A stretch of 64,000 bases of DNA from an uncultured Gammaproteobacteria bacterium (GCA_964522405.1 CAZFTR010000001.1:116686-180685); one strand, 5' to 3'; positions 40 through 44,713 are shown, counted from the stretch's first letter. Program-made: numbers and translations. The notes: generated by a model from the sequence alone, not told the origin.

Positions 40-302
40 CGCAGAGCGAGCGCCCGGGTAACCAGTCCGCCATGAACGTCTCGCCCGGTCAGGGGTGAGG
101 AAGTTTCTAGGCGATCCGGGGCTGATGAGGAGTTGCTTGTGCGGGCTGTTTGCCCGACTTGCCGCTCCCCGAGTTGTCGGGGACGCTGAAGGCTGGGGTG
201 CCTTCGCGCACACAGATCGGCTGGCCGCCACCTCGCGGGAACAGTACGTCCCCAAATATGGTGCCGCCAGCAGTATCATCCACTACTACCAGAGAACTCA
301 TG
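40..302 (-). other. GC-rich transcribed segment of unknown function behind a consensus promoter; either a leaderless small ORF (about 64 aa from ATG at 301) or an ncRNA
   Basis: Sharp compositional switch from AT-rich to GC-rich. On the minus strand there is TTGACA (332-337), a 17-nt spacer, then TATACT (309-314). A 5'-terminal ATG sits about 7 nt after the -10. No long ORF in any frame. Confidence 0.35.
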
Positions 303-308
303 AGCAAA

Positions 309-337
309 AGTATACATAAAAAAATTCACTTTGTCAA
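309..337 (-). promoter_or_regulatory. Sigma70-like promoter (TTGACA-17-TATACT) reading into the GC-rich segment at 40-302
   Basis: Hexamers and spacing read directly from the sequence. Confidence 0.5.
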
Positions 338-410
338 TAATAGATCTTGATATTATTTAGTTATTTTGCTAAAGTAAGTACAGTTTTTAAGAATAAATTA
401 AAATGAAAAT

Positions 411-1604
411 ATGCAAATAAGTACTGATCAGGAGAAAATAAATGAATTATTGTCGCGCGGAGTAGAGAATATCTATCCAACCAAAGAATTTTTAGAAGAT
501 CGCCTTGAATCAGGAGAGCAATTGTCACTTTATACTGGTTATGATCCAACTGCACCAACTCTTCATATAGGTCATGGGATTACTCTTCTTAAACTTCGCC
601 AGTTCCAAGACCTAGGCCATAAGATAATCATGTTAATTGGGGATTTTACTGCCATGATAGGAGATCCTACTGACAAAGGCGCTGCCAGACAGAAACTAAC
701 CAAGGATCAAGTAATGGCTAATTGCCAAGAATATCAAAAACAAGCCAGTAGAATTTTGGACTTTGAAGGAGAAAATCCAGCAGAATTGCGCTACAATAGT
801 GAGTGGTTGGCTGATATGAGTTTTGCCGACGTGCTGGAGTTAACTTCTCATTTTACAGTACCTCGTTTACTAGAGCGCGATATGTTTCAAGAGAGAATAA
901 AGCAAGAAAAAACAATTTACTTGCATGAATTTATGTATCCAATTATGCAGGGATATGATTGTGTGGCTATGGATGTTGATGGGGAAGTGGGTGGTAATGA
1001 TCAAACTTTCAATATGCTTGCTGGAAGAACCCTAATGAAAGATCTCAAAGACAAAGAAAAATTTGTTTTAACTTCAAAACTTCTTACTGATAGTTCTGGA
1101 AAGAAAATGGGAAAAACTGAAGGAAATATGATTTCATTTTCAGATTCTCCCCAAGATGTTTTTGGAAAGGTTATGAGTTGGACAGATGAGATGATTGTTG
1201 TTGGGATGGAGCTTTGTACCAGAGTTTCAATGTCAGAAATAGAGGAAATTGAAAAGAAAATGAAAGCTGGAGAAAATCCTAGAGATTTTAAATTGCAGCT
1301 TGCATATCAGATTACTAAAACTTTTTTAGGTGAAGAAGCAGCAGAAAAAGGTAAAACACATTTTGAAAATGTTATCCAAAGCAGTGGTAAACCTGATCAA
1401 ATTCCAGAACTTAAACCAAGCTCAAATGACATTATCACCGTTCTTGTAGAAGCTGGTTTTGCTAGTAGTAAGGGTGATGCCAGAAGAGCGATTGATGGTG
1501 GAGGAGTAAAGATAAATGATCAGAAAATAGACAAACATGATGTGCAAGTCAATTCCGGAGACTTAATACAAAAAGGTAAAAGATTTTTTGTAAAAATCGC
1601 CTAG
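411..1604 (+). CDS. tyrS: Tyrosyl-tRNA synthetase
   Basis: Class I HIGH motif (TLHIGHG), KMSKS-like KMGKT, and a C-terminal S4-like RNA-binding tail (GGGVKINDQKI...). Confidence 0.9.
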   Translation: MQISTDQEKINELLSRGVENIYPTKEFLEDRLESGEQLSLYTGYDPTAPTLHIGHGITLLKLRQFQDLGHKIIMLIGDFTAMIGDPTDKGAARQKLTKDQVMANCQEYQKQASRILDFEGENPAELRYNSEWLADMSFADVLELTSHFTVPRLLERDMFQERIKQEKTIYLHEFMYPIMQGYDCVAMDVDGEVGGNDQTFNMLAGRTLMKDLKDKEKFVLTSKLLTDSSGKKMGKTEGNMISFSDSPQDVFGKVMSWTDEMIVVGMELCTRVSMSEIEEIEKKMKAGENPRDFKLQLAYQITKTFLGEEAAEKGKTHFENVIQSSGKPDQIPELKPSSNDIITVLVEAGFASSKGDARRAIDGGGVKINDQKIDKHDVQVNSGDLIQKGKRFFVKIA

Positions 1605-1608
1605 CTTT

Positions 1609-3336: not shown

Positions 3337-3356
3337 AAGGAGTTATTATTTATATT

Positions 3357-4394: not shown

Positions 4395-4398
4395 AAAT

Positions 4399-5466: not shown

Positions 5467-5469
5467 TAT

Positions 5470-6966
5470 ATGGATATAATAAATATCCAAAAAAAATTGA
5501 GAAGAGAAGATCAGCAAAGCTGGAAAAGAGCTGGTGAAAAAAAAGTTTTAGAATTATTTCATGCCATGTCTGAAAGAGTTCCAGCTTATAGAGATTTTCT
5601 GCAAAAAAATCAGATCAAGTATCAATCAATAAACAGAATAGAGGATTTAAATAAAATCCCAACTATTGATAAGGATAATTATCTTAGAAGATACCCATTA
5701 AAAGATCTGTGTTGGGATGGCATTTTTGATAAGGGTCAATATACAATATCTTCCACTTCCGGATCAACAGGCAAAGCTTTTTATTTTCCAAGAACAAGTA
5801 AGCAGGTTGAAGACTATGCATTGCTTGCTGAGTTGTATCTTTTAGAAAATTTTGAAATTGACAAAAAAACAACTCTTTATATAAATGCTTTTCCTATGGG
5901 ACCTTGGATTGGTGGAGTTTTTACTTATGAAGCTGTGCGATTAGTTGCTGAAAGAGGAAAATATCCTATTAGTATTATCACTCCAGGTATAAATAAAAAG
6001 GAAATATTAAATGAAATAAAGGAATTTGGAAATCAATTTGAGCAGATTCTAATTGGAAGCTATGGTCCGTTTCTAAAAGACATGATTGATGAGGGGATTG
6101 AGCAAGGAATGGACTTTGGTCAGTATAATTTTGGCTGTATTTTTTCAGCAGAAGGTTTTACAGAAGGTTTTAGAGATTATGTTATTGAAAAACTCAGTCT
6201 AAAAGACAAGTATAAAATGACTTTGAATCATTATGGAACTGTTGATCTCGGAACAATGGCTCATGAAACTCCAATAAGTATTCTGATTAGAAGGCTGGCA
6301 ATAAAAAACAGTAGTCTTTACCAGGAATTATTTGGCAATATACATAAGCTACCAACACTTTGCCAATACATGCCTGATTTGTTTTATTTTGAGAGTATTG
6401 ATAATAGATTGATTTGTAGTGCTGACAGTGGAATTCCTCTTTTGAGATATGATCTAAAGGATCATGGAGGTATTTTTACTATAGAAAATCTAGAAAAAAA
6501 ATTTAAAAAGTTTGGCCTTGATCTATATCAGGAAATGGAAGAAGTTGGATTACAAGATTCTCTATGGAATTTACCTTTTGTCTACGTCTATGAGCGAAGT
6601 GATTTTTCTGTTAGTTTGTATGCATTTCAGATTTATCCGGAAACATTGAAGCGAGCTCTACAAAATCATGATTTGCATGAACAGATTACAGGTAAATTTC
6701 ATATGTTGGTCAAATATGATCAAGAACAAAATCAATTTCTTGAAATAAATATTGAATTGAAAAAAAACCAAAAAGAGACAGATCAGCTCCGGGAAAAAAT
6801 AGAAGGTTTTATTATTGACGCCCTTTTGAAAGAAGTTTCTGAATTTGCAGAAACCTATAAGCATAATCCTCAAAAAATGAAGCCAAGTATAGTTTTTTGG
6901 CCCTATGAGGATCAGAAATATTTTAAATCAGGTATTAAGCAAAAATGGAGTAGTAAAATAAATTAA
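5470..6966 (+). CDS. PaaK / coenzyme F390 synthetase-like adenylate-forming enzyme (ANL superfamily)
   Basis: TISSTSGSTGKAFYFPRT adenylation motif preceded by the conserved PaaK-like N-terminal block (VPAYRDFL...IEDLNKIPTIDKDNYLRRYPL). Confidence 0.7.
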   Translation: MDIINIQKKLRREDQQSWKRAGEKKVLELFHAMSERVPAYRDFLQKNQIKYQSINRIEDLNKIPTIDKDNYLRRYPLKDLCWDGIFDKGQYTISSTSGSTGKAFYFPRTSKQVEDYALLAELYLLENFEIDKKTTLYINAFPMGPWIGGVFTYEAVRLVAERGKYPISIITPGINKKEILNEIKEFGNQFEQILIGSYGPFLKDMIDEGIEQGMDFGQYNFGCIFSAEGFTEGFRDYVIEKLSLKDKYKMTLNHYGTVDLGTMAHETPISILIRRLAIKNSSLYQELFGNIHKLPTLCQYMPDLFYFESIDNRLICSADSGIPLLRYDLKDHGGIFTIENLEKKFKKFGLDLYQEMEEVGLQDSLWNLPFVYVYERSDFSVSLYAFQIYPETLKRALQNHDLHEQITGKFHMLVKYDQEQNQFLEINIELKKNQKETDQLREKIEGFIIDALLKEVSEFAETYKHNPQKMKPSIVFWPYEDQKYFKSGIKQKWSSKIN

Positions 6967-6967
6967 T

Positions 6968-8047: not shown

Positions 8048-8052
8048 ATTCT

Positions 8053-11958: not shown

Positions 11959-12041
11959 GCGCGAGTGGTGGAACGGTAGACACGCAGGCTTGAGGGGCCT
12001 GTGCTCGCAAGGGTGTGGAGGTTCAAATCCTCTCTCGCGCA
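11959..12041 (+). tRNA. tRNA-Leu (anticodon GAG), type II with a long variable arm
   Basis: Hand-folded: acceptor GCGCGAG/CTCGCGC, 3-bp D stem, anticodon stem CAGGC/GCCTG with loop TTGAGGG, long variable arm, T arm GGAGG-TTCAAAT-CCTCT, discriminator A. No encoded CCA. Confidence 0.8.
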
Positions 12042-12097
12042 CAAAAAAAGCAAGGTTTCTGGCCTTGTTTTATTATTTACGAGATAAATTGGGAGTC

Positions 12098-12136
12098 GGG
12101 CGACGCGTCTGAGGGGAACCTCAGACGCGTCGCCAC
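12098..12136. repeat. Perfect 16-bp GC-rich hairpin (GGCGACGCGTCTGAGG-GGAA-CCTCAGACGCGTCGCC) at the distal edge of island 2
   Basis: Read directly; marks the AT/GC boundary next to the tRNA-Leu. Confidence 0.6.
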
Positions 12137-12422
12137 ACTCGCCGTCCTTGCCTGCGCTGTTGCGCAGACCCGCGTGGTTGGGGCGCCGTGCACCCCTTCC
12201 TTGCCTGGCCGCCGAAGCGACCTGTCGGTGCCCGGTATGGTACCGGAGCACTCCTGGCGTCGAAGCGCTCATCGTGGTGTCTCGCCGTTGCGATTCACCG
12301 GAGTCGGCGCGCTGGCGTGCGCCATTCTCGAGATGACCCTTGCAGTCGGTGCCGTCAGCAGGTGACGGCGGTTCCGTTGCCTTGAGCGATCATCTGTGCC
12401 CCCGAAGAGGCCTTCGGCGTGG

Positions 12423-13286
12423 CTACCAGCTGAAGCAGAAGTCGCTGCTCGTCGCCGTGTAGCCCGCCTCGTCGCAGCAGCCCGCGGTCACCCCGTTCGG
12501 GTTGTCGCCGCCCGCGCCGTAGTCGGTGTTCACGTCCTCGTTGGTCGCCGCCGTCACGTTCTCCGCCGCCGCGGTGGCCGTCTGGTTCAGGTTGTGCGGG
12601 AAGTCGCCCGTCGCAGCCGTCGCCGTGTTGGTCATGCCCGAGTTGCCAGTCTCCACCGTCTCGCCGCCGCCCGCGCCGTAGTCGGTGTTGCCCAGGTTGG
12701 CCTTGTTCGCGTCGAAGTCCGCCGTACCGCCGGTGTCGTTCGCCGCGTTCGCGCCGTAGTCGGTGTTCACCACCATCTCGATCTGGGTCGCGCCGTAGTC
12801 CACCAGGAAGGGGATGTCCACAGCCAGCGTGGTGTCCACCCGCATCAGGATCGCGGTCGCGCCGTGCTCGCCGTAGTTGTCCAGCATGGTCGCCCAGATC
12901 GCCGTCGCGTTCTCCGTCGCTGCACCCGCGTTGTCGTGCATCCACTGCCAGCCGTCGAAGGCCACCGTCTCGCGCGCCGCGCCGTAGTCGGTGTTGGTGC
13001 CCATGATGAGGTGCGCCAGCTCGTCGTCGGTCAGGGCCGCCTCCCGGTTCATGGCGAACCAGTTGTTGGCCGCGTCCAGCAGAACCCGGTTGCTGTTGCC
13101 GTCGTCGACGAAGGTCAACAGCAGGTTGCCGTTGAAGTCCACGTCCACCGTCAGGGTGGTGTGGGCCGGGGCGTCGACCTGATCGATGGTCGGCGTGTCC
13201 GGCTCGGCAGCCGCGATGCTGGTGGGCAGCACCAGCAGAAGCAGGACCGCGAATGCGGCCGTCAGGAACGAAAGTCTCCGTCTCAT
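12423..13286 (-). CDS. Secreted protein with six copies of an N(T)DYGA motif; high-GC codon usage
   Basis: N-terminal signal peptide (MRRRLSFLTAAFAVLLLLVLPTSIAAAEP). Repeated GTNTDYGAA, NTDYGANA, NTDYGAGG (x2), VDYGAT, DNYGEHGA. C-terminal Cys cluster CCDEAGY...FCFSW. RBS GGAGG sits 10 nt before the ATG. Third codon positions are almost all G/C, unlike the flanking genes. Confidence 0.7.
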   Translation of the reverse strand: MRRRLSFLTAAFAVLLLLVLPTSIAAAEPDTPTIDQVDAPAHTTLTVDVDFNGNLLLTFVDDGNSNRVLLDAANNWFAMNREAALTDDELAHLIMGTNTDYGAARETVAFDGWQWMHDNAGAATENATAIWATMLDNYGEHGATAILMRVDTTLAVDIPFLVDYGATQIEMVVNTDYGANAANDTGGTADFDANKANLGNTDYGAGGGETVETGNSGMTNTATAATGDFPHNLNQTATAAAENVTAATNEDVNTDYGAGGDNPNGVTAGCCDEAGYTATSSDFCFSW

Positions 13287-13351
13287 CTTAGGAATTCCTC
13301 CACAAGGTCATCAACTTCCCGCGCCAGGTTTGGTTCGGGATTGCATTATCC

Positions 13352-13380
13352 ATTATATGATTTTTTTTGAGAGTGTGCAA
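13352..13380 (-). promoter_or_regulatory. Consensus sigma70 promoter (TTGCAC-17-TATAAT) driving the secreted repeat protein
   Basis: Minus strand: -35 at 13375-13380, -10 at 13352-13357, 17-nt spacer, located in AT-rich DNA. Confidence 0.55.
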
Positions 13381-14318: not shown

Positions 14319-14423
14319 AAAGCTTAATATAGCATATTTTGGAGAGTTTGTCAAGTTGACCAAAGGCCTTTATTTAGGTAAAATAGCCTAGTAAGTAATA
14401 TTTTGTTGGTATAAAAGAAACCC

Positions 14424-32534: not shown

Positions 32535-33218
32535 ATGCAAGACAAATTTGCAGAATCGCAAGCACTATCTCGAGAAAGAAAAATAGGTTTTGTTTTCCTA
32601 TTGATTTTTGCTATTTTGACAGTAAGTCTGGGAGTGCTTCAGCTCAGAAATACTATTTACGGACCTTATGCAATTAAAGTCGCCAAAAAAGATAGTGTTG
32701 AGAGTCTTCTACTAAAAGACGAAGATGCCAGATTGCAACAAATCGATACAGACCATGATGGAATAAATGATTATGAAGAATTGTTTTTTTATGAAACCAG
32801 TCCGTATATTCCAGATACTGATTCAGATGGTATAAGTGATAAGGAAGAATTAGAAGATGGAACTGATCCGCTTTGTCCAAAGGGACAGGATTGTGGTGAA
32901 GTTCAGAGCGAGGCAATTTCAGATCAAGCACCAAAACAAGAAGTTATTGGATCTCCGATTGTTGGAAATGTCAAAACAGCTGCTGAATTGTTGGGTGGCG
33001 CTACTACTGACCAGCCTCCAGAAGTGGATATTGCCAGTGAATTGGCAACCATTGCCACTGATGCTGATATACTTAGAGAGATGCTTTTGGCAACAGGAAA
33101 TATAACCCAAGAAGAACTTGATAAAGTAACAGATGAACAACTATTAGAATCTGCTAAAAACCTTCTTTCTACGCAGGGTACTGCTCCAGTAGCTACCGAA
33201 GAAGAATCCAGTCAATAA
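32535..33218 (+). CDS. Membrane-anchored acidic protein with Ca-binding-like DxDxDG repeats
   Basis: TM segment IGFVFLLIFAILTVSLGVL; DTDHDGINDYEE and DTDSDGISDKEE (thrombospondin-type-3/EF-like) repeats; stop codon abuts the start of the giant ORF. Confidence 0.5.
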   Translation: MQDKFAESQALSRERKIGFVFLLIFAILTVSLGVLQLRNTIYGPYAIKVAKKDSVESLLLKDEDARLQQIDTDHDGINDYEELFFYETSPYIPDTDSDGISDKEELEDGTDPLCPKGQDCGEVQSEAISDQAPKQEVIGSPIVGNVKTAAELLGGATTDQPPEVDIASELATIATDADILREMLLATGNITQEELDKVTDEQLLESAKNLLSTQGTAPVATEEESSQ

Positions 33219-33219: not shown

Positions 33220-36200
33220 TTGCTGATTTTTATGTTTAAAAATCAAAATAGAAAATTAAAAACCTCATTGATAATACTGTTATCAAGTTTTGTTATTTTG
33301 GTTCCGGTTCTTGCCGGTTTACTAAAAATTGATCAGGCTCATGCTCAGGCCGCTGCAGCAGCAAAAGCAGCAGCAAAAGTTGCCACAGAAGCAGCATCAG
33401 GAGCAGCAAATTCAGCTCCGGCAGTGCCAACTCATGAGTTGAGTAGTGTTCCGAAGAAAATGCAAAAAATAGAAGATACTCTAGACGATACTTTTTTATC
33501 TACAGGACTTTCAGCTCTTATTAGTGGAGCTTCATATTTTTTAAACCGCCTTGCTTATGATGGTGCTAGGTGGATTGCTTCGGGTGGAAAAGGGCAGGGA
33601 GCACTTGCTTTTCAAGATGGATTTGGAGAGTACATCTTAAAAGTTGGAGGAGACAGTGTTGCTGATGCTGTTCAGCAGTTGGGAAATCCCTATGGATTAA
33701 ATCTCTGTAAACCCTCAAATTTAGATGTGCAGGTTTACCTGCAACTAGGATATAGAAAAGTTTATGATGGGCTTGGTGGAGAAGGTGGTCCTAAACCAAA
33801 ATGTTCATGGTCAGAGCTCAAGGATAAAATTGAATTTCAAACTTCAGGCGACGGAGTGCGATATTTTGGAGACACTATTGTCGAAGGTTTCCAAAACTCT
33901 TTTAGAGTTGAAGATAGTGATTTTGGAATTGCACTTGGAGCAGCTGGACAGCTAGACAGAATATATGCCCAAAAACAACAAGAAGCAGAGGGTGAACAAT
34001 TGGTTGGTGAAGGGTTTAAGCCACTTAAGAGTATGTTGTCTGGAAAAACTCTAACTCCGGCACAGATAATAAAAGAAGAAGCAAAATCTATTACTGCCAA
34101 ACATCAGGGTCAGATGACGGCTAATCAGATATCTGGAGTTTATGGCTCAGGAAGTATTGAGGCTCTGGTGGGTGCTGCTTCAATTTTTTTGACTACACTT
34201 ATATCTGATCTTTCCAAAAATATTTTAACTGATGGTTGGTTGACAGATCCTGGTTCAGGTGGAGGGGGTAGTTTATCTTCAAATACAGAAGTTGTAATCA
34301 ACGAATTTGCTTCAGCCATAAACCAAAATAGAAGAGCTGCAGAAAATGCCTTTAAATTTTTGTTTACAGCAGTTCCTGTTAAGCAGAGTTCCAGTTATCC
34401 GCTTTTGGATGATTTTGCCTCATGTCCTGATGATCCTGCTTTAAACCATCCTAAATTAACAAATTGTGTTATTGACCGAGCCTTTAGAGAAGCAATAGAT
34501 CGTGGAAACCAGGGGAGTAGTTTGACTATAAGAGAAGCCATGCTAAAGGAAAACGGAGAACTTCTCCACGGAGGTTGGCCTCTAATATCTCCTCTGAGAG
34601 AAGAAGAACATACAGAAGTAAAAGATTGTTATAGAAATGGATATTGCTACTCAAATATACAGAAATTGAGAAAAGCTCGTATCCTTCCTCTTGGTTTTGA
34701 GATCGCAGCCCTTCGTTCTGATCCGGATCAGCCCTGGACTCTTAAGCAGGTTGTAGATGGATTCAACGATTGTGCGGTTGATCCTGATTCTGGAAATATT
34801 GTCCAAAGTTCAAAAAAACCTTTTTGTCATTTGATTGATCCAAATTGGATTATACGCTTACCTGATCCGCGTTGTGAATCACTTGTTTATGGGCCAAATT
34901 TGATTTCCAATGCTGCGCCTACAAGACATAGTGAATGTGCTGATATTTCTACTTGTTTACTTGAAGATGAAAATGGCCAATGTATTGGTCAATATGGTTA
35001 TTGTCTAAAAGAAAAAAATGTCTGGAATATGCCGGGTCAATCTTGCCCTGCTCAGTTTAGCACTTGTGACACTTATACCAATACTAAGACTGGGAAAATA
35101 GAAAGCTTTTTATCAAGAACTGTAGACTATGATCAATGTACTAGTGATGCTGCTGGCTGTAGAGCATATAGTATTTACCAGGAAGACGGTGCATGGAGAA
35201 ATAGTAGTCAAACAGATGAGCTTTTAAAAACCAAAGGAGAGGCGCAAACCATGTATTTTGGAAAACTGGCAAGCCATGCAACTTGTCCTATTGATGTTGA
35301 TTTAAATGCTGATGGTTGTTCTGCATTTCTTCAGGTAACTTTTGACAGCGAAGTTGGTAATTATCAGAAAATAGCAGCTGCCACACCTCTTTATATGCAA
35401 AAGGCTCCAAATTATCTAGGTTGTTATGATACTGATTTATCTACCAAAGAAATTATAGATTGGCCAATTTCAGAAACTGATTTAACCCTTCTGACTGATA
35501 GACCTGAACAATGTGCAGACTATGCTCAGGTTTGTGTAGAAGATGAAGCAGGTTGTAGAAAATATCGCGCAGCTGAATCCGGAGTTCAAGACGTGGTTGG
35601 TATTGTGGGAGCAAATTCTTGTCCTGCTGAATGCGTAGGTTATGATACTTTCAAACAGGAAGAAAGTAATTTTGAACCTTCAATATTCCCAATGTATTTT
35701 ATTGCTGACGGTGTTGGGTCTAGAAGTTGCCCAGGACAGTATTCCAGCTGTTCAGAATTTACCAATATTGGCGCTGCCGGAGAAGGTGGAGAAGAGCTTG
35801 AGTATTTTGTTGATATTAAATATTGTGAAAAACCAGAAGAGGACAATGAAAAAACCTATTATTCTTGGGAAGGATCTGACAGTGCTGGATATGTTTTGAA
35901 AGTTCACAAAATGAAACAAATTGATCAAGAGGAATATACTTCTTATATTTTTAAAGTGGGTCAAGCAATTCAATTTAATCCTGGAGATAATTTAAGTTTT
36001 TATGAGATTGGATCACCGGCATATGCCAAAGATTCAGTAGAAAACTTAGAAGAATATTATCATGCTTGTAATGAGGAAAATTATAAGCAACTCATAAATG
36101 GAGAAAATCAGTTAGGAGATATAGACGAAGGTTGTGCTGCAATTTATGATAATGATGGAAATATTTATTATAGAATTTTATCAGAAACTGTAACTGTATC

Positions 36201-39200
36201 TGATCAATGTACACCTTATAGAAAAACTAATACTTATCTTGAATTGGATTCAGATTTAAATACTAGTGAACTTTGTTCATACAAATCAGGACTTTGGTCA
36301 GATGCTAATCTCAGTTGTGAGAGATGTTTCAATGGCGGAGAATATCTAGATGGGTCTTGTGTTTATTGGACTATTCCAAGTGAGTCTCTTTCATGTCAAG
36401 GTCCTGCAGGACAAGAAAATTTGTACAATGGTTGTCGAACTTATACTGGAAATGCAGTAAATGATCCTGTTCAGAAAATATTCTTTGATTTTGAACCTCA
36501 GCCATCTGATGATGATCCTGATGGTTTGAACAATGCCAAAGATGGTTGGTCTGTAGGAGAAATTACTCTTGACGCACAGCAAGTGGGACTTCATTCATTG
36601 CAAATTGATTCTGGTATTGTTGCTTTAGATGTGCCTGCTGAGATATTTACTGAGGATAAATGGTATGAATTAACTTTTTGGGCTAGAAGCGCTGTTGAAC
36701 AAAACCTAGTTGTGAAACTGATTCAGATTGCTCAGGATGTTGGCAATTTCAATTCTAATCCAAATATAGAAGGTGGGGAGATCCCAGTTAAAATAAATAC
36801 CAATTGGCAGGAATATAAATTAGGTCCGGTTCAATTTGCTGGAAGTACTGACTTGGAGGTGACGGCTATGTTCCAGGCAGTTTCTCTTGGGGTGAGTAGT
36901 GCTTATTCAATTGATAATGTTCGTATAGTGGAAGTTCCAAAATTTCACCGCATTAAAAATTCATGGCAACAAAAAGATACTGGTCCACTTGGTGAAGAGG
37001 TTGTTTTGGATGTTCCTTTGCTCTGTGACACTACACCTACTGATCCGTTCCCAGGTGAACATCTTGGCTGTAGTGCATATACGGACAAGACTGCAGATCC
37101 TGATCTGCCAGTCTATACTTCTGGATTTGAAAAATTGTGCAGAGTCAAAGCAGAAGGTTGTCGTCCTATAGTAGATACTTTTAATACAGTGAGCCATGAA
37201 GATCCGGGCAATCAAGATAATACCTTAACTCATGTATACAATGCATGGTGTGAGGAATTGGCAGAGGACATTTGTCAGGTTAAACACATTGATCAGGTAT
37301 TGGGAGAATGTCAGGTTGGAAAAGGTAAAAATGGTTGTTATATTCCAAAAATTGTCATTCCTGCCGGTGTGGAATTCAAAGATTTGTTAAATACCACAGA
37401 TTCAACAGTGGTTGTACCTGCTGATACAGAGGAAACTACACCAATTTATCTAACCTACAATACTGAGTATGCATGTTCTTCCAGCTTTATGGGTTGTAAA
37501 GCTGGTGCTCTTGAAGAGCAATCTCTACCAACAGAAAATCAAATTTCCTATGAGTTTAGTGAGCAAATGGTCTATGATAATCCGACTTTTTATGAACAAA
37601 CTCTTTGTAAATCAGAGGAGTTAGCTTGTGAAGAATACCGACATGGTAACAGTTTGGCTTACTTCAAAGATCCATATCTTACTGGTTCCAAACTGTGTAA
37701 ATATCGAGAAAATTTAGACTCAGGTGAGAACTATGGATGGTTTATGGAGGGTATAGGAAAATGTACTGGAACAGAAGATCTCTGTAGTTCAAGTGATGAT
37801 TGTTCTGAGGATGTTGCTTGTGATCTTGAGATAGATGTTCCTTGTTATGATAATTATCTGCAGGCTGGTGGAGAAAATGGCATTTGGTCAAATGATGCCT
37901 TATTTCATCCAATAACAGGAGAGAGTTTGTATGATGGTTTTGTTGGATTATGTGAATCACAATATAATAATTGTACTGAATATTTGGATCCACAGGATAG
38001 TTCTGGAGCTGATCCAGATGGTAAACCTTATTACGTTATAGCAGACAACCAATTGATTTCCGGTCAGTCTGAGTGTGCCGGACAGGTTAGTTTGCACGAG
38101 GGTTGTGTCTTGTTTGATCAAACAGACAACCCAAATAAGTTTTATGACAGTGAAGCAAGTTATAAGAAAAGCGCTGCTACAGATAATCCAAAATATCAAC
38201 CGGTTACACCAATTACCAGTGGTAATCTGGACGCAAATGTAGTATTGAAAGTTGAAGCTAATAGAAGCTGTAGCGAATGGTTGTCATGTAAAAATAGTAT
38301 CAAGATTACTGATGAAAATGGAATTCCAAAAAATGTTTGTAATGAATTCAAAGCTTGCAAGGAATCAGATGGTTCAGCGGGCTGTGCTAATTGGGCTGTT
38401 GATTCTGCTTACGAAACAGAGCCTTTGACTCAAGAGAAATATATTAAGCGTGATACATCCTGGTATGGAGAAGAATACACAGGATATTCACTGTTTGATA
38501 AATATCAGATTAGTAGTATTGCTTATGTTTCTGTAGAAGACGAGCCATTTTCATATATGGCTTACGAATTACATCCTGGAGTTGCTCCAAATAATAACTG
38601 TATAGGACAAGCTGCTTGGAGTAAATGTGGTTTTGATAATGGTGGTAGATGTCATAATGAAAAATGTATCTATACTATGAGCGGTCCTTTTTTACCTGAC
38701 TCTGATACAAAAGATGAAATCGTGGCAGAGTTAGAGGGCGGAACTTGTAAGGCTTTCCCAGAGGATAGTTCACCATATGATTTTAGTTTTGCAGAGCAAC
38801 CAACGCTTCATGAGACTGCCTATGATGACGGGCCTGATAGATATACTTTTGAAACCAAGAAAAAAGGATATGGTGGAGCAAATATTTGTCAGAGTGGAGA
38901 GAATTGCTCCTGTGAGTACAAGAAAATAGCTTATGGTAATGGTACAACTGATTACTTGAGCTATAGTGAAGATAAATATGCCAAAGGTGTTTGTACGGGA
39001 GGAGATTTTGCTCAGAAATCTTGTAGAATAAATTCTGACTGTGGTGCGGGTGGTTCTTGTAGTAGGATCACGAGTATTGAAACTCATATAGGTTTGAGGG
39101 GTCTGTGTATGGAATATGATTTGAGCAGACCAATAGACAAAGATAAGGATATTTACCCGTGTCTCACTTGGTTGCCGGTGGATACTGCGGCGACAGTTCT

Positions 39201-42200
39201 TGATCCATATAACAATGATCCAAAAGCAGGTTATCTACCACGGCTTGATGCCAGTGTTACTCTAGCCAATGGTTTTAAGAGTGAGTATGGACAAGTTTAT
39301 TGTAGCGAGGCATCAGGAAATGCCAAGGGTGCCTATGACATAGATGGATACAGAGAGATAACAAATGCAATTAACCAATCTACAGTTCCAAAATTTTCAG
39401 CCATATGTGATGGTAATCCAGATACTTTTGTTTGTAACAAGGACCTGTATAGTAATATGTTCAATGAGTATGGAGATTATATCTTTGATGAGAAAAAATG
39501 GGTAAGTATTACTGGTAATCCAGAGATAGCTTATGATGTTGGTGATGCAAATGCAGAATTTCCATTTACAGAAAAACTGCCTGTATTGCGTGATCCATTT
39601 AATGCTGGTTGGGGTGATAATTTTTCTTCTTTTAATACTTGGGAAGATGTGGAAGGATCCAAAACCACTATAATGCAAGGATTTTTTGAATGGCAAACTC
39701 GTCCACCGGCTACACCTGGTTCAGATGTGCTTACTGGCGCTAGTTTGTATCCTGATGATGACCAGAACAAGAATATATATAATTATCCGGATTTTGTCTA
39801 CTCCTTGGTTCAGCAATGGGCCTGGCATGGTGGTATGTATGGCAGAGGGTTGGCAGAAACCAAGGAATCCAAGAATATTATTTTGAATACCAAGAGTATA
39901 TCTGATCTGTGTGGAGATTTGATAGGTAAGGGGCAGCTATATACCGGTTGTGCAGACCTCTATAATTTTGCTGTAAATGCTCCAACTAAAACTCAGCAGG
40001 TTGAGTTATTAAAAGCTCTTCTTAACGCTCGAGTCAGTAGAATTTTAGCTGAAGATACCGAGGAAATTAAGCAGCAAGAAATAGTCAATCCAAATTCAAC
40101 TGTATTATTTACCTCAGCTCTTTATTTTAGGGATTACTTATATACTTCTTTGAAAAAAGTAGAAGAGATTGCGCCTGTAAAGGGTCTTGAAAGTAAAGGT
40201 CAGGATAAGAATAAATGGTATCTAGAAGATGAAGAGATGACCGAAGACTTGAATGGGGATGGTAAGGTTGATTATAAAGATATCACTGATCCTGAGTCTA
40301 TATTTTTGAGAGTAAGTTATGAACCGGTAGATTTTCATAGTTATACTCCGGGAACAATTGAAAAGGTCTTTGATTTTACAGGCGGCAGTAATAAAAGCAC
40401 AGATAAAGATGATCCAAATAATTATTTTTACAAGAGCTCAATTTGGGGGCATGCTACCAAGAAACTACGTGGTTATCATCCGGTCTTTTACAATTATGAA
40501 GCAGCAATAGAGGTTGTAGAAGATGAGATCAGTAAATTGCACTATGGACCAATGATGGCTCCAAATGGGATTGAAAGAGTTCTTACTATTGATTTTGATA
40601 CTCTTAATAATAGTCTGCCGCTTGAGTCAATCACAGCAAATGATGGGGTTTTGTACGATCTTAACTATTATTCAGAGGCTGTAAAAGGAGTTTATGTTTT
40701 TAAGGTAAGCCCAAGAACAGGTCCTAGAGCAGGTTGGTCACGATATATTATTATATCTATGGAAGACGGGGGATTTAGCGAAGATAAACCAGTGACTGAT
40801 TTGAGTCTTGATTTCTTTGTGGAGCTTCTTGACGAGTGGGCTGGAGATTCAAAATCCAAGTGGTCAAAGGGTGTGGATTGGATTGACGAGGATTTGGGAA
40901 ATAGATCACTTATTTGGGTCTGGGCTGATTTTGATGAGAAAGGTAATATGTCCGATGATTTCATAAAATCAAACTACCAAGCTTGGTATCAAAATACTAA
41001 AAGTATTTTTGTCTACAGTTCAGAGTTCAATGCCAAAGATGGAAAAACTCCTTTCTTGGCAGTTGTAGCAGAGACACATCCAAGATGTACAGAATTCCAG
41101 GTTGTTTATGATAGTGAAACCGAAGGGCTGGGCGGTTCAACTAACAAGGCTTGGACTGATAGAGTTTGGAATTATTCTAATTATCAACCGGGAACTACCT
41201 TTTTCTTTGGTAATAAATTAACTAAGCCGGCCTTTTCTCGACCTTTTGGTTCATTGCAATTAACTGCTGATTCTTTTGAAGGTACAAATGCATCAGGTTT
41301 GAGTTGGGAAGATGCCAGACGCAGATACACCTTTAGATCACCTGAGTTTGATGGTATACCTTATTCATGTGACGCAACAGCTCTAGAGTCAGAGCAGACC
41401 GCATTCAATCAAGGTAACTTTTTTAATGAAGGTTTGATGTATGATAATCCAGATTTTATTGGGCTTATAGAGTGGGGTGAACAAAAATGTATAGCGTCTT
41501 ATGGTGGAAATAATGAACTATATAACACCATGTCTTTTGTTGAGGCTGAAAATGGTATAGATATGCTATCTCAATTATTTAAAAAATCATTTACCTCTAT
41601 TAGAGCAAATGAACAGGGAGAAAATAAATTTGGTATTAAAGGAGCAATTGATCCACAGAATTCACTCTTTGTGAAGGAAGTTGGATTTGATGGTTCATCT
41701 ACTGCTGAGGCAGGTCTAATTCCTCCACAAATATATTCACTAAATCCAACCACTTGTTATGATTATACCGGTGGTAAAATTAATTGTACTATTGGAGAAG
41801 CAGATAATATAACCATAAACAGAAGAAATTTCATGTTAGAAGATTATGATGATGATGGATTTTATGATGAAGATCTAAATGGTGATGACTTGCCTGATCT
41901 GATAATTGCAGAAAATTCATTTACTGCTGTTGCTCATTTCTTTGCTTATGCTGATCATAACCGCATGCCTATTCGAAGAGTAATGGTTGATTGGGGAGAT
42001 GGAGATATTTCAAATCAAGATAGAAAGGGAATGTATAAGAATAGAAAACCATATTGTATTGGTGTTGGTAATGAGCAGAGTCCAGATATTGGAGAGTGTT
42101 CTCAGTCTGAGCAATTAACTTGTCTCAAAGATTCAGATTGTCCTTTGGCAGGAGAAACTTGTGATTTGAATGCAGCCAGGCATTTTGGAAATTCAGATAG

Positions 42201-42624
42201 AGCTTGTGTGCCGGAATATTTTGAATTTATGCATGGTTATTCTTGTTCGCAGTTTGATCTTCAATTGAGTGAGCTTGATAATGTTGATTTCTTGGAATAT
42301 ATGATTGAGTTTGATCAGCTTGATGAGTATCTGGGTAGGCCGGACGTAGAGCAAACTCTTAAGAATAGGGGTTATACTCCAGAAGTAAATACCAAGGTCT
42401 GTGTATTCCAGCCAAAAGTTCAGATATTGGATAATTGGGGGTGGTGTAATGGAACGTGTGATTATAAAGGTCCTGGAAGTGGGTGCTATTCCGAAGATGA
42501 GCTTAGTGGAGATTTTTGCGAAGTGAGTTCAGACAAGCCTTGGACAGGTTATGGTGAAGAGACAGTAGACAGTCTGGGTAATACGATTAGAAGTGGTTCA
42601 ATTATAGTAATTCCGACATCATAA
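33220..42624 (+). CDS. Giant (3134 aa) cysteine-rich predicted cell-surface protein
   Basis: Single uninterrupted 9.4-kb ORF with an N-terminal TM/signal (LIILLSSFVILVPVLAGLL), an Ala-rich linker, then a Cys- and Asp/Gly/Asn/Tyr-rich extracellular sequence with no catalytic motifs. Confidence 0.7.
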   Translation: MLIFMFKNQNRKLKTSLIILLSSFVILVPVLAGLLKIDQAHAQAAAAAKAAAKVATEAASGAANSAPAVPTHELSSVPKKMQKIEDTLDDTFLSTGLSALISGASYFLNRLAYDGARWIASGGKGQGALAFQDGFGEYILKVGGDSVADAVQQLGNPYGLNLCKPSNLDVQVYLQLGYRKVYDGLGGEGGPKPKCSWSELKDKIEFQTSGDGVRYFGDTIVEGFQNSFRVEDSDFGIALGAAGQLDRIYAQKQQEAEGEQLVGEGFKPLKSMLSGKTLTPAQIIKEEAKSITAKHQGQMTANQISGVYGSGSIEALVGAASIFLTTLISDLSKNILTDGWLTDPGSGGGGSLSSNTEVVINEFASAINQNRRAAENAFKFLFTAVPVKQSSSYPLLDDFASCPDDPALNHPKLTNCVIDRAFREAIDRGNQGSSLTIREAMLKENGELLHGGWPLISPLREEEHTEVKDCYRNGYCYSNIQKLRKARILPLGFEIAALRSDPDQPWTLKQVVDGFNDCAVDPDSGNIVQSSKKPFCHLIDPNWIIRLPDPRCESLVYGPNLISNAAPTRHSECADISTCLLEDENGQCIGQYGYCLKEKNVWNMPGQSCPAQFSTCDTYTNTKTGKIESFLSRTVDYDQCTSDAAGCRAYSIYQEDGAWRNSSQTDELLKTKGEAQTMYFGKLASHATCPIDVDLNADGCSAFLQVTFDSEVGNYQKIAAATPLYMQKAPNYLGCYDTDLSTKEIIDWPISETDLTLLTDRPEQCADYAQVCVEDEAGCRKYRAAESGVQDVVGIVGANSCPAECVGYDTFKQEESNFEPSIFPMYFIADGVGSRSCPGQYSSCSEFTNIGAAGEGGEELEYFVDIKYCEKPEEDNEKTYYSWEGSDSAGYVLKVHKMKQIDQEEYTSYIFKVGQAIQFNPGDNLSFYEIGSPAYAKDSVENLEEYYHACNEENYKQLINGENQLGDIDEGCAAIYDNDGNIYYRILSETVTVSDQCTPYRKTNTYLELDSDLNTSELCSYKSGLWSDANLSCERCFNGGEYLDGSCVYWTIPSESLSCQGPAGQENLYNGCRTYTGNAVNDPVQKIFFDFEPQPSDDDPDGLNNAKDGWSVGEITLDAQQVGLHSLQIDSGIVALDVPAEIFTEDKWYELTFWARSAVEQNLVVKLIQIAQDVGNFNSNPNIEGGEIPVKINTNWQEYKLGPVQFAGSTDLEVTAMFQAVSLGVSSAYSIDNVRIVEVPKFHRIKNSWQQKDTGPLGEEVVLDVPLLCDTTPTDPFPGEHLGCSAYTDKTADPDLPVYTSGFEKLCRVKAEGCRPIVDTFNTVSHEDPGNQDNTLTHVYNAWCEELAEDICQVKHIDQVLGECQVGKGKNGCYIPKIVIPAGVEFKDLLNTTDSTVVVPADTEETTPIYLTYNTEYACSSSFMGCKAGALEEQSLPTENQISYEFSEQMVYDNPTFYEQTLCKSEELACEEYRHGNSLAYFKDPYLTGSKLCKYRENLDSGENYGWFMEGIGKCTGTEDLCSSSDDCSEDVACDLEIDVPCYDNYLQAGGENGIWSNDALFHPITGESLYDGFVGLCESQYNNCTEYLDPQDSSGADPDGKPYYVIADNQLISGQSECAGQVSLHEGCVLFDQTDNPNKFYDSEASYKKSAATDNPKYQPVTPITSGNLDANVVLKVEANRSCSEWLSCKNSIKITDENGIPKNVCNEFKACKESDGSAGCANWAVDSAYETEPLTQEKYIKRDTSWYGEEYTGYSLFDKYQISSIAYVSVEDEPFSYMAYELHPGVAPNNNCIGQAAWSKCGFDNGGRCHNEKCIYTMSGPFLPDSDTKDEIVAELEGGTCKAFPEDSSPYDFSFAEQPTLHETAYDDGPDRYTFETKKKGYGGANICQSGENCSCEYKKIAYGNGTTDYLSYSEDKYAKGVCTGGDFAQKSCRINSDCGAGGSCSRITSIETHIGLRGLCMEYDLSRPIDKDKDIYPCLTWLPVDTAATVLDPYNNDPKAGYLPRLDASVTLANGFKSEYGQVYCSEASGNAKGAYDIDGYREITNAINQSTVPKFSAICDGNPDTFVCNKDLYSNMFNEYGDYIFDEKKWVSITGNPEIAYDVGDANAEFPFTEKLPVLRDPFNAGWGDNFSSFNTWEDVEGSKTTIMQGFFEWQTRPPATPGSDVLTGASLYPDDDQNKNIYNYPDFVYSLVQQWAWHGGMYGRGLAETKESKNIILNTKSISDLCGDLIGKGQLYTGCADLYNFAVNAPTKTQQVELLKALLNARVSRILAEDTEEIKQQEIVNPNSTVLFTSALYFRDYLYTSLKKVEEIAPVKGLESKGQDKNKWYLEDEEMTEDLNGDGKVDYKDITDPESIFLRVSYEPVDFHSYTPGTIEKVFDFTGGSNKSTDKDDPNNYFYKSSIWGHATKKLRGYHPVFYNYEAAIEVVEDEISKLHYGPMMAPNGIERVLTIDFDTLNNSLPLESITANDGVLYDLNYYSEAVKGVYVFKVSPRTGPRAGWSRYIIISMEDGGFSEDKPVTDLSLDFFVELLDEWAGDSKSKWSKGVDWIDEDLGNRSLIWVWADFDEKGNMSDDFIKSNYQAWYQNTKSIFVYSSEFNAKDGKTPFLAVVAETHPRCTEFQVVYDSETEGLGGSTNKAWTDRVWNYSNYQPGTTFFFGNKLTKPAFSRPFGSLQLTADSFEGTNASGLSWEDARRRYTFRSPEFDGIPYSCDATALESEQTAFNQGNFFNEGLMYDNPDFIGLIEWGEQKCIASYGGNNELYNTMSFVEAENGIDMLSQLFKKSFTSIRANEQGENKFGIKGAIDPQNSLFVKEVGFDGSSTAEAGLIPPQIYSLNPTTCYDYTGGKINCTIGEADNITINRRNFMLEDYDDDGFYDEDLNGDDLPDLIIAENSFTAVAHFFAYADHNRMPIRRVMVDWGDGDISNQDRKGMYKNRKPYCIGVGNEQSPDIGECSQSEQLTCLKDSDCPLAGETCDLNAARHFGNSDRACVPEYFEFMHGYSCSQFDLQLSELDNVDFLEYMIEFDQLDEYLGRPDVEQTLKNRGYTPEVNTKVCVFQPKVQILDNWGWCNGTCDYKGPGSGCYSEDELSGDFCEVSSDKPWTGYGEETVDSLGNTIRSGSIIVIPTS

Positions 42625-42636
42625 AAATTTTCAAAA

Positions 42637-42666
42637 ACAAAAAATGACCTACAAGGTCATTTTTTA
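42637..42666. terminator. Bidirectional terminator (AAAAAATGACC-tacaa-GGTCATTTTTT), copy A
   Basis: Perfect stem with A/T runs on both sides. Confidence 0.65.
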
Positions 42667-42697
42667 TTTAAAATATTTTTGATTTTTTTAATAAAAA

Positions 42698-42798
42698 GGG
42701 CCGTGCCGAAGCGCGTCCACGAGTTCACCGAAGTGAGACTTGTGGGCGCGCTTGGCTTGGCGTGCGACTGCTGAGAAAACGAGTTCGACTGCCGTGTA
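42698..42798 (-). other. Conserved GC-rich structured 3' element, copy A (nested about 60-nt helix with a CGAA tetraloop)
   Basis: gccgaagcgcg / ccacgag / tcac-CGAA-gtga / cttgtgg / cgcgcttggc nested pairing; about 75 nt identical to copy B at 43657-43761. Confidence 0.5.
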
Positions 42799-43326
42799 CT
42801 ACGGCTTGAGCTCCAGCGTGTAGTCGGGGCCGTCGTTGTCGAAGATCGTGATCTCGATTCCCTCGGAGGTCTTGATGACCTCGTAGTACCAGCCTGCCGG
42901 CTTGTCGAGGGGGAAGACCACAGCGGCCTCCTCGGGGTTGTCGTGCCAGGTGATCAGCGGACCGGTGATCATGGGCTTCTTGCCGAAGCCGATCATGGTC
43001 ACCTCACAGGTGTGACCACCGAACCCGTTCTCGATCATCTTGGTCGTGATCTCCTCGCCCCAGCCCTTGAAGTGCTTCCACTTGCCCGCGATGTTCGGGC
43101 AGATGTCCACCACGGGGATGGGCTCAGGGGCAGGCTCTTCTTCCGGGGTGGGCTCTTCAGGTCGCGGGATCGTGTCCGGCTCGACGAACCGGGGCTGTTG
43201 GGCTGTGTCTTCTGGGATCTGATCTCGGTTAGTGCTCCGAGGGTAGTTGGAGCTACAGCTGGTAAAAAGAAAAGCCACGAGCGTGGCCACGAGAATGAGG
43301 ATGTTTTTCCTCTCCATGGTGGCCAC
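42799..43326 (-). CDS. Lipoprotein paralog A with a conserved C-terminal domain; high-GC codons
   Basis: Lipobox LFTSC, Pro/Glu-rich linker, conserved block VVDICPNIAGKWKHFKGWGEEI...GFGGHTCEV...WHDNPE...GWYYEV.KTSEGIEIT. RBS AAGGAGGTG upstream. Confidence 0.7.
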   Translation of the reverse strand: MATMERKNILILVATLVAFLFTSCSSNYPRSTNRDQIPEDTAQQPRFVEPDTIPRPEEPTPEEEPAPEPIPVVDICPNIAGKWKHFKGWGEEITTKMIENGFGGHTCEVTMIGFGKKPMITGPLITWHDNPEEAAVVFPLDKPAGWYYEVIKTSEGIEITIFDNDGPDYTLELKP

Positions 43327-43500
43327 CTCCTTGCAGTAGCAGCCGGAGCTATAGTGGAATTTCCACTACACTTCTAGCTACCACTAGCAGGAGTTTTTTG
43401 TCGCACGCTATAGATCTTGCCTTTTGGCTAGGTTTAGCCAAGCAGACAAAGATATTGAAAAGAGCTTTTAGTCATCAAAGACTGATAAATATTAGACTAT
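43327..43500 (-). promoter_or_regulatory. Conserved 5' leader, copy A, with palindromes (TAGTGGAA-A-TTCCACTA; GCTAGTGGTAGC; TTGGCTAAACCTAGCCAA) and an upstream TTGACA-17-TCTAAT promoter-like site
   Basis: Nearly identical to 44278-44450. The palindromes were read directly; the promoter call is weaker (the -10 is non-consensus). Confidence 0.45.
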
Positions 43501-43586
43501 ATTTTTGTAATTTTGTCAAGTTTTCTATAGTAAAATAAAACTATTAGAAATGGTCAAATTAGGGTAATCCTTGTTTTTCAAATTTA

Positions 43587-43616
43587 AACAAAAAATGACC
43601 TGGTGGGTCATTTTTT
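43587..43616. terminator. Bidirectional terminator, copy B (AAAAAATGACC-tggtg-GGTCATTTTTT)
   Basis: Same stem as copy A but with a different loop. Confidence 0.6.
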
Positions 43617-43656
43617 GTTTAAGTAATTTTTCACATTTTTTAAAAAATCATTTAAG

Positions 43657-43761
43657 GGGCCGTGCCGAAGCGCGTCCACGAGTTCACCGAAGTGAGACTT
43701 GTGGGCGCGCTTGGCTTGGCGTGCGACTGCGAGGAAAAAACGAGAGTTCGACTGCCGTGTA
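43657..43761 (-). other. Conserved GC-rich structured 3' element, copy B
   Basis: See copy A. Confidence 0.5.
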
Positions 43762-44277
43762 CTACGGCTTGAGCTCGGCCCAGATGTCGGGCTTGGCCTC
43801 GTTGTCGAATCGCGTGATCTCGATCCCCTCGGAGGTCTTGACGACCTCGTAGTACCAGCCCACCGGAGCCGGAATCGGGAAGACCACGGCGGTCTTCTCG
43901 GGGTTGTCGTGCCAGGTTGAAGCCGGACCGGGGAACATCGGCTTCTTGCCGAAGCCCGTGATGGTGACCTCGCAGGTGTGGCCACCGAACCCGTCCTCGA
44001 TCATCTCGGTCACGATCTCCTCACCCCAGCCCTTGAAGTTTTTGTACTTGCCCGCGATGTTCGGGCAGATGTCCACCACGGGGGTGGACTCTTCGGGGGC
44101 AGGATCCGCGGGCTTGTCGAGCCGCGGGGTCTCGACCGGCTCGACGAACCGGGGTTCCTGTGCGGCGTCTTCCGGGACGTAGTCCCGATCTCCCCCACGC
44201 TGAGGGGTGAAGCCGCAACCGGTGGAAAGCAAAGCCACGAGCGTGGCGACCATGAGCAGATTGCTCTTCTTCATCAT
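43762..44277 (-). CDS. Lipoprotein paralog B (about 65-70% identical to A); high-GC codons
   Basis: Lipobox LSTGC, Pro-rich linker, and the same conserved C-terminal domain as copy A. Confidence 0.7.
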   Translation of the reverse strand: MMKKSNLLMVATLVALLSTGCGFTPQRGGDRDYVPEDAAQEPRFVEPVETPRLDKPADPAPEESTPVVDICPNIAGKYKNFKGWGEEIVTEMIEDGFGGHTCEVTITGFGKKPMFPGPASTWHDNPEKTAVVFPIPAPVGWYYEVVKTSEGIEITRFDNEAKPDIWAELKP

Positions 44278-44450
44278 GGCGCCACCTCCTTGCAGTAGCA
44301 GCCGGAGCTATAGTGGAATTTCCACTACACTTCTAGCTACCACTAGCAGGAGTTTTTTGTCGCACGCTATAGATCTTGCCTTTTGGCTAGGTTTAGCCAA
44401 GCAGACAAAGATATTGAAAAGAGCTTTTAGTCATCAAAGACTACTATCCA
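44278..44450 (-). promoter_or_regulatory. Conserved 5' leader, copy B
   Basis: See copy A. Confidence 0.45.
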
Positions 44451-44713
44451 TTAAGTATTAGACCATGTTTTACCAGTTTTGTCAAGCTCTCTATAGTGAA
44501 AAGGTTAATAATTTGTGTATAAAAAGATCAGTTTTTGCTTAATTTAGCCTAGATTTTGATTTTAATAAAATTTAATCTAGGACTTGCATAGTTGCAAAAA
44601 AGCCTGTTTTTGCTAAAATAGAAGGACTTTTATAGAGTTGGTTTATAGTCAGTAATTAGTGAAAAATTTCCTAAACTACTAACTGTCAACTGTTAACTAC
44701 AAACTATTTAAAT

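Follow-up and report, generated by a model that had tools for sequence, protein, structure and literature searches.

The window analysed here is a stretch of 64,000 nucleotides (nt) deposited under an uncultured Gammaproteobacteria bacterium (GCA_964522405.1, CAZFTR010000001.1:116686-180685). The host is a Magasanikbacteria-like member of the Candidate Phyla Radiation (CPR), uncultivated and ultra-small, with an AT-rich chromosome; its tyrosyl-tRNA synthetase (TyrRS, 411-1604) shows 75% identity to that of a Candidatus Magasanikiibacteriota genome and 60-70% identity to those of other Magasanikbacteria and Patescibacteria. The window is mostly made of plus-strand core genes, among them TyrRS, ArgRS, AspRS, a bactofilin, a sugar transferase and a 3134-residue surface protein, and its proteins are recorded on one NCBI contig and in Logan assemblies. 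Three islands of 60-69% GC, all on the minus strand, lie between these genes, where the window as a whole has 36.5% GC and the 300-nt profile outside the islands stays at about 0.27-0.45. A reading made from the sequence without database searches (the sequence-only reading) had described the islands as far richer in GC than their flanks, which these values bear out. Their neighbours are TyrRS, ArgRS, a DAGK-like gene, tRNA-Leu, RNase P RNA, AspRS and the 3134-residue surface protein.

Island 1 (about 26-300) reaches 0.61 in the 300-nt profile (1-300), and island 2 (12076-13340), with a GC content of 0.67, reaches 0.61-0.69 (12001-13200). Island 3 comprises two blocks, 42691-43250 (GC 0.61) and 43651-44305 (GC 0.63), with profile values of 0.58-0.63 at 42901-43200 and 43801-44400. 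At 40-nt and 60-nt resolution the switches between AT-rich and GC-rich DNA span 20-40 nt. The sequence-only reading had placed the island edges at transcription-unit boundaries, and they do coincide with promoters and terminators; the promoters that it named exist, and the minus-strand orientation of all islands stands. Its statement that the GC-rich composition sets in a few nucleotides past the promoter does not extend to island 3, where the rise comes some 60-100 nt past the promoter, its leader having a GC content of only 45%. Island 3 had also been taken as one block, and has to be redrawn as two tandem units with AT-rich promoter and terminator DNA between them. The coordinates of all features are collected in Table 1.

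Nine minus-strand sites in the 64 kb match the sigma-70 consensus at 11 or more of 12 positions. Three of them are the promoter of island 1 and both promoters of island 3, and the association of promoters with islands is therefore not due to chance. Two others precede RNase P RNA (14326-14354, minus strand, 11/12) and tRNA-Leu(CAA) (55750-55778, minus strand, 12/12); the canonical -35/-10 code is therefore apparently used by this CPR bacterium. The islands end in a hairpin followed by a T-run, which is also the terminator of the upstream plus-strand gene.

Table 1. Features of the three GC-rich islands; positions are counted from the first nucleotide of the window (GC3, GC content at third codon positions; UTR, untranslated region; aa, amino acids).
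Feature	Position	Strand	Remarks
Island 1 bidirectional intrinsic terminator	1-25	both	serves both the plus-strand HATPase_c gene upstream and the transcript of island 1
Island 1 transcribed segment	26-301	-	GC 0.62-0.63
Island 1 promoter	309-337	-	TTGACA-17-TATACT, 11/12 match
tRNA-Leu(GAG)	11959-12042	+	adjoins island 2
Island 2 bidirectional terminator	12047-12071	both	common to tRNA-Leu(GAG) and the island 2 transcript; seen on both strands
Island 2 non-coding GC-rich 3' segment	12085-12422	-	338 nt, GC 0.67, 8-9 hairpins
Gene B	12423-13286	-	287 aa, putative secreted protein, GC3 0.95, orphan
Gene B 5' UTR	13287-13345	-	about 60 nt, GGAGG ribosome-binding site
Island 2 promoter	13352-13380	-	TTGCAC-17-TATAAT, equally TGCACA-16-TATAAT (13379-13352), 10/12
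Island 3 unit 1 AT-rich bidirectional terminator hairpin	42636-42672	both	ends the 3134-aa gene (+) and island 3 unit 1 (-)
Unit 1 3' element	42695-42798	-	small hairpin across the stop codon, then long GC-rich hairpin
Gene C1	42799-43317	-	172 aa, putative lipoprotein, lipobox LFTSC, GC3 0.83, orphan
Unit 1 leader	43318-43485	-	about 165 nt, 45% GC
Unit 1 promoter	43491-43519	-	TTGACA-17-TCTAAT, 11/12
Unit 2 AT-rich terminator hairpin	43586-43624	both	duplicate of 42636-42672 (family D7)
Unit 2 3' element	43654-43761	-	copy of 42695-42798, 94-95% identity
Gene C2	43762-44277	-	171 aa, putative lipoprotein, lipobox LSTGC, GC3 0.87
Unit 2 leader	44278-44450	-	copy of the unit 1 leader
Unit 2 promoter	44457-44485	-	TTGACA-17-TCTAAT, 11/12

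The protein encoded by gene B of island 2 starts with the predicted signal peptide MRRRLSFLTAAFAVLLLLVLPTSIAAA and contains five (N)TDYGA-type repeats. The 5' UTR of the gene is not notably structured (fold z = 0.24). The 3' segment has no codon periodicity in any frame and folds at -185.7 kcal/mol (z = -7.1); a near-perfect hairpin with 22-nt arms at 12093-12140 closes it. The island adjoins tRNA-Leu(GAG), yet it carries no tRNA-derived direct repeat, the search for such repeats, and for inverted repeats, at its bounds having returned weak, chance-level matches only. At the gathering score, the Rfam scan of the window, which carries four tRNAs in all, reports RNase P RNA and tRNAs only, and in E-value mode it yields no family in island 1 (both strands), island 2 or island 3, where again weak matches at chance level were the only ones.

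Island 3 is a tandem duplication of a unit of about 960 bp that comprises terminator, 3' element, coding sequence, leader and promoter. The C1 and C2 proteins share 64% identity by BLASTP and 67% by MAFFT, with 0.215 non-synonymous (dN) and 0.482 synonymous (dS) substitutions per site and a dN/dS of 0.45. Identity amounts to 77% in the coding sequences and about 80% in promoter and terminator DNA, while 162 nt of the leader (44281-44442 in unit 2) are 100% identical. The terminator hairpins, 79% identical, differ in the loop and at the top of the stem, and the promoters have kept their hexamers and diverged in the spacer; both lack the usual A at the second position of the -10 hexamer. By inspection, the N-terminal sequences MERKNILILVATLVAFLFTS-C and MMKKSNLLMVATLVALLSTG-C of C1 and C2 fit the PROSITE PS51257-type pattern, a signal peptide whose lipobox closes with an invariant Cys. 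In the 3' element, a long imperfect GC hairpin with a UUCG loop is followed by a U-run (z = -6.6), a stem-loop arrangement that resembles 3' stabiliser hairpins.

The leader of unit 1 folds at -62.8 kcal/mol (z = -5.3). A long predicted hairpin pairs CUCCUGC with the ribosome-binding site GCAAGGAGG, which makes the leader similar to those that sequester the Shine-Dalgarno sequence, such as RNA thermometers and riboswitch expression platforms, but unlike these it corresponds to no Rfam family. As the predicted fold holds the ribosome-binding site paired, translation of C1 and C2 is probably gated alike, by a single signal that could be temperature, a trans-acting RNA or a protein. The leader is thus a candidate new regulatory RNA. 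Near its 5' end, a candidate upstream open reading frame (ORF) of 13 codons, AUGACUAAAAGC...UAA (MTKSSFQYLCLLG), was also observed at 43458-43419 and 44417-44378 (minus strand); lacking an obvious ribosome-binding site, it could be a coincidence. Directly upstream of island 3, the plus strand encodes the giant protein of 3134 residues mentioned above (33220-42624), which is Cys-rich and predicted to be secreted, and the gene beside it (32535-33218) contains a bacterial TSP3 repeat.

Tandem paralogous lipoprotein genes are also found in Mollicutes, where the vlp and vsp genes form tandem families of variable surface lipoproteins. Island 3 resembles these in its AT-rich reduced genome and in its near-identical 5' non-coding DNA in front of diverged coding sequences. 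It differs in having two copies only, signal peptides that are not conserved and GC-rich genes, and in lacking phase-variable repeats or invertible promoters.

In island 1, codon periodicity is absent (GC by position 0.66/0.55/0.65), and its unit of about 310 nt gives a moderate fold signal (z = -3.3). A candidate ORF of 64 codons (107-301, minus strand) has its ATG exactly at the predicted transcription start, hence island 1 would be a structured small RNA of about 310 nt or possibly a leaderless mRNA. The candidate protein had no meaningful match in Pfam, NCBIfam, PHROGs or PADLOC. The terminator hairpin of the island extends past the window start, and the complete palindrome, aaaaacccccggcatatccgggggtttattttt, lies at 6668-6700 of the stretch upstream on the same chromosome (L003).

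In two related Magasanikbacteria genomes (L005, with about 6 nt between the genes, and L009), the valyl-tRNA synthetase (ValRS) and TyrRS genes are adjacent, the closest available relative having only 75% TyrRS identity. Here, the two genes are separated by island 1 and three AT-rich genes of 317, 331 and 447 codons, the last with the HATPase_c domain (3330-6648 of L003 and 1-410 of the window). The interval may be a lineage-specific insertion hotspot. In another CPR genome, a non-coding element of about 200 nt with 69% GC and its own terminator is situated directly upstream of tyrS (L013, 1225-1420). It has no Rfam match, and it was rejected as a homologue of island 1, with which it does not align.

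A fourth GC-rich mini-unit was noticed on the minus strand at 1-215 of L003, some 6.5 kb ahead of the window start. It consists of a TTGACA-17-TATTAT promoter, a GGAGG ribosome-binding site, an ORF for 29 residues of hydrophobic character (MRFLEGALWGLLYQIFIAVFPWLRLLSFA, about 79% GC3) and a GC-rich hairpin, and the L003 contig ends there. The unit has a putative resemblance to a type I toxin. In the other direction, no further island was found in the 2.2 kb past the window end (L080).

The composition of the coding sequences sets islands 2 and 3 apart from the rest of the window. GC at the first, second and third codon positions is 0.60/0.48/0.95 in B, 0.55/0.42/0.83 in C1 and 0.59/0.44/0.87 in C2, so that GC3 decreases from B to C2 to C1, against about 0.25 in native genes. 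Indeed, codon choice is inverted relative to the host for every amino acid, and the foreign look ascribed to these genes in the sequence-only reading holds. The same goes for its description of exported products with GC-biased third positions, given the signal peptide of B and the lipoboxes of C1 and C2, and for that of GC-rich structured 3' segments followed by AT-rich terminators: the folds of the 338-nt segment of island 2 and the segment of about 102 nt of island 3 exceed those of shuffled controls (z = -7.1 and -6.6). The architecture said to be shared by the three islands survives as a generic layout; there is no sequence similarity between different islands, whose promoter regions have only the hexamers in common, and island 1 lacks the coding periodicity. 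Furthermore, B prefers GCG and CTG, and the C genes prefer GCC and CTC. Such unlike preferences, and the absence of any sequence in common, speak for independent events.

Abrupt jumps in composition could also be produced by misassembly, misbinning or contaminating pieces of some GC-rich genome, and Logan contigs do break within island 2, at 12095-12117. This break falls inside the palindrome with 22-nt arms, and long palindromes typically break de Bruijn graphs. Independent assemblies argue strongly against an artefact. The whole of island 1 with its flanks is contained at 100% identity in Logan contigs of SRR8146440 and SRR8146441, the promoter-side junction of island 2 is spanned at 100% identity by contigs of SRR8146441 and SRR31802803, and its tRNA-side junction is reproduced at 100% identity, up to 12116/12117, in SRR8146440 and SRR8146441. 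The three runs have accession ranges years apart. Islands 1 and 2 are thus not assembly chimeras, in line with the sequence-only reading. In addition, gene B occurs in Logan on AT-flanked contigs only, with none in a GC-rich context, the edges of the islands match promoters and terminators, and in island 3 identical AT/GC junctions are seen twice, in diverged copies. Exact-protein look-ups in Logan gave no record for C1, C2 or their DUF5684 neighbour. On this evidence, an artefact is extremely improbable.

The island proteins are orphans. Word-indexed searches of 5.8 billion clustered proteins with B, C2 and a profile of C1 and C2 returned the query genome only, an exhaustive HMMER search of 1.84 billion representatives with B returned B itself only, and C1 has no homologue apart from C2; the protein collections searched include Logan assemblies of the same sequencing runs. 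The B and C proteins had no match by sequence search in the PDB, none by tblastn in phage records and none in scans of viral contigs, and nothing meaningful was found for B, C1 or C2 in Pfam, NCBIfam, PHROGs or PADLOC. The only metagenome match to the C profile (L079) was rejected as spurious, being eukaryote-like low-complexity DNA. BLASTP against all ORFs of the window revealed no native paralogue, and the AlphaFold2 models (predicted local distance difference test scores of 48 for C and 36 for B) were too poor for fold searches.

These results bear on the proposal that the surface-protein genes were captured very recently, and directly, from the high-GC host of an epibiont. CPR bacteria are often epibionts, the composition of B is extreme and almost undecayed, and the products are predicted to be exported. 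Horizontal transfer into Patescibacteria is documented as well (PMC12455944). However, the protein collections, which cover assemblies of the same sequencing runs, contain B on AT-flanked contigs only and no homologue from any other organism among the proteins searched; moreover, the unlike codon preferences of B and C suggest different sources. A very recent date fits B and does not fit island 3, whose copies stand at a dS of about 0.48 and at 64-67% amino-acid identity. Island 3 is not recent: AT-rich promoter and terminator DNA was duplicated along with the gene, and divergence of the copies followed. The host as donor, suggested in the sequence-only reading, accordingly finds no support, and we consider such a capture unlikely.

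Another proposal was an undescribed cassette-type element, mobile or for expression, in which GC-rich payloads would be captured or exchanged at pre-existing expression sites made of promoter and leader on one side and 3' element and terminator on the other, much as happens with integron cassettes or at loci of variable lipoproteins. It draws on the conserved flanks of island 3 (162-nt leader at 100%, 3' element at 94-95%) around far more diverged coding sequences, on a general layout that is found four times in about 70 kb, and on the tRNA gene beside island 2. The leader and the 3' element are confined to this tandem pair: neither recurs elsewhere in the window or in 71 CPR loci, and one pattern for each (24-27 nt) gave 0 matches, for the leader in GTDB representative genomes and for the 3' element in JGI metagenomes. 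The duplicated unit includes promoter and terminator, as in a simple tandem duplication. No boundary direct repeats or attC-like sites were found at the islands, which differ from integron cassettes in having no shared end sites of this kind, and no integrase, transposase or recombinase is present among the flanking genes scanned. Without a shared flank, leader, 3' element or boundary repeat among the islands, the cassette proposal can hardly be upheld, and we rate it as quite improbable.

We favour, with a probability of roughly 60%, that the islands are separate pieces of high-GC DNA, acquired horizontally from unsampled donors as moron-like monocistronic units and now drifting toward AT. 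The inverted codon usage and the empty ValRS-TyrRS site in two relatives argue for acquisition from outside. Each unit would have been inserted into a harmless gap, after the terminator of one plus-strand gene and before the promoter of the next, and would be expressed alone, antisense to its neighbours, with a strong sigma-70 promoter of host type on the upstream side and with transcription ending at the bidirectional terminator borrowed from the neighbour. Selection for expression without harm to the neighbours would give such a layout. Island 2 would export a secreted repeat protein and island 3 two paralogous lipoproteins, presumably cell-surface factors, and the product of island 1 would be a small RNA rich in GC or else a very short protein from a leaderless mRNA. 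Most likely, the arrays of GC-rich 3' hairpins were brought along by the genes, as terminators or UTRs of donor type, and may now protect 3' ends. In island 3, the whole unit including promoter and terminator would have been duplicated in tandem after acquisition, and the copies would now drift slowly toward the composition of the host. Of 507 sites, 115 differ between C1 and C2, and 75% of the differences exchange GC for AT or the reverse; C1 is also richer in Ile and Asn than C2 and poorer in Ala, Gly and Val. Changes so dominated by GC-AT exchange, with amino acids shifted the AT way in the lower-GC copy, support this slow drift.

The sequence-only reading had judged the pattern incompatible with ordinary horizontal transfer, for which the foreign promoter should have come too. 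This objection is not borne out, because a GC-rich gene would be retained only with a promoter of host type, and an insertion between a terminator and a promoter is harmless; phage morons follow a similar logic (PMC3594210). Promoters arise readily from random sequence (bioRxiv 10.1101/111880). We infer that AT-rich DNA should favour such new promoters. The islands thus look like ordinary horizontal transfer in an unusually clean form and not like a new kind of mobile element.

Several points weigh against acquisition. No donor can be named, and the searches, exhaustive HMMER included for B, found B and C in this genome alone, which is surprising for B, a gene that has hardly drifted. The amino acids of C1 and C2 are nearer to those of an AT-rich proteome than to those of a typical 65% GC one (Lys exceeds Arg, Ile 5-9%, Ala 5-7%). 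About 70 kb hold four such units, one of them just upstream of the window, and all are antisense with near-consensus promoters, which suggests a denser and more regular arrangement than sporadic transfer would leave. The identity of the 162-nt leaders could reflect gene conversion and not function, and the support of junctions by independent assemblies is limited to islands 1 and 2.

Part of this evidence would suit genes that are native, or have long been resident, and that keep their high GC through selection or some biased process, for instance for transcripts that are very stable or highly structured, or for resistance to AU-specific RNases. The transcript itself would then be the target of selection, and composition would follow the transcription unit for that reason. 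The GC-rich zone tracks the edges of the transcription units beyond the coding sequence and includes strongly folded 3' RNA, C1 and C2 combine host-like amino acids with GC-rich synonymous sites, and no donor was found anywhere searched. GC3 is still at least 0.83 although the copies, in which promoters of host type are included, stand at a dS of about 0.48, and the island promoters match those of stable-RNA genes in strength. The preponderance of GC-AT exchange between C1 and C2, with the AT shift of the lower-GC copy, looks like decay, and the window holds no native paralogues. The structured RNAs of the same genome stay below 0.67 GC (RNase P RNA 0.43-0.59, and tRNAs), and the gene B 5' UTR is unstructured. 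To our knowledge, no mechanism raises the GC3 of a particular gene to 0.95. Maintenance of a native GC content is therefore improbable in our view.

A related possibility, to which we give little weight, is a dedicated set of strongly promoted antisense GC-rich mini-units for structured RNAs and for exported proteins unique to this CPR lineage, in which the high GC, the leader and the 3' elements would be functional and not a trace of transfer. The orphan B, the host-like amino acids of C1 and C2, the leader identity and the density of the units keep it alive as a minority reading. If true, such units would produce hyper-stable or specially regulated transcripts, or would be modules swapped between expression sites for surface variation in host interaction.

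Among known systems, the separate acquisitions that we favour come closest to phage morons, which are independent transcription units inserted between phage genes (PMC3594210). Like morons, the islands consist of single genes between unrelated genes, with their own promoter and terminator and with a GC content unlike that of the neighbours, which implies horizontal transfer. They differ in being chromosomal, with core-gene neighbours and no prophage and no match in PHROGs or phage records; in addition, the GC contrast is far larger, and the promoter has the composition of the host where the payload has not. The genomic islands and singly transferred genes described in Patescibacteria (PMC12455944) share the CPR host, the atypical composition and the accessory genes, and one island here is beside a tRNA gene. 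Those reported transfers were detected through homologues in other genomes (PMC12455944), whereas the islands of the present window measure 0.3-1.3 kb with one gene each, and have no mobility genes and no identifiable donor or homologue.

Two GC-elevated genes (0.55-0.57, compared with 0.38) were also seen in a Magasanikbacteria locus (L009, 665-1264 and 8103-9192), the second of which begins right behind a promoter-like site rich in AT. In this group, islands that deviate in GC may therefore recur.

CPR bacteria rely on other cells, presumably by means of their surface and secreted proteins. The foreign-looking orphans encoded in islands 2 and 3, predicted to be exported, strongly promoted and mapped to the nucleotide, are concrete candidates for host-interaction factors. 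The locus is also a clean case from nature of the way in which a foreign gene rich in GC may become expressed in an AT-rich genome, with a promoter of host type, a terminator borrowed from the neighbour, and subsequent duplication and slow AT drift. The almost undecayed gene B, free of homologues in the collections searched, points to unsampled donors or to something less ordinary.

Away from the islands, a few minor features of the window were observed. An intergenic segment of about 240 nt (55370-55610), moderately GC-rich and adjoining tRNA-Leu(CAA), has a bidirectional terminator at its end and matches no Rfam family on its plus or minus strand; a small RNA not described so far may be encoded there. 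Nested GC-rich hairpins (aaccaccc...gggtggtt around two inner stems) are located between convergent genes at 57446-57535. Finally, two candidate small-RNA units lie on the plus strand between two minus-strand genes, at 59054-59150 (TTGACA-17-TACTAT promoter) and 59204-59330 (TAGACA-16-TATAAT promoter), each with an intrinsic terminator and a predicted hairpin RNA of 60-70 nt.

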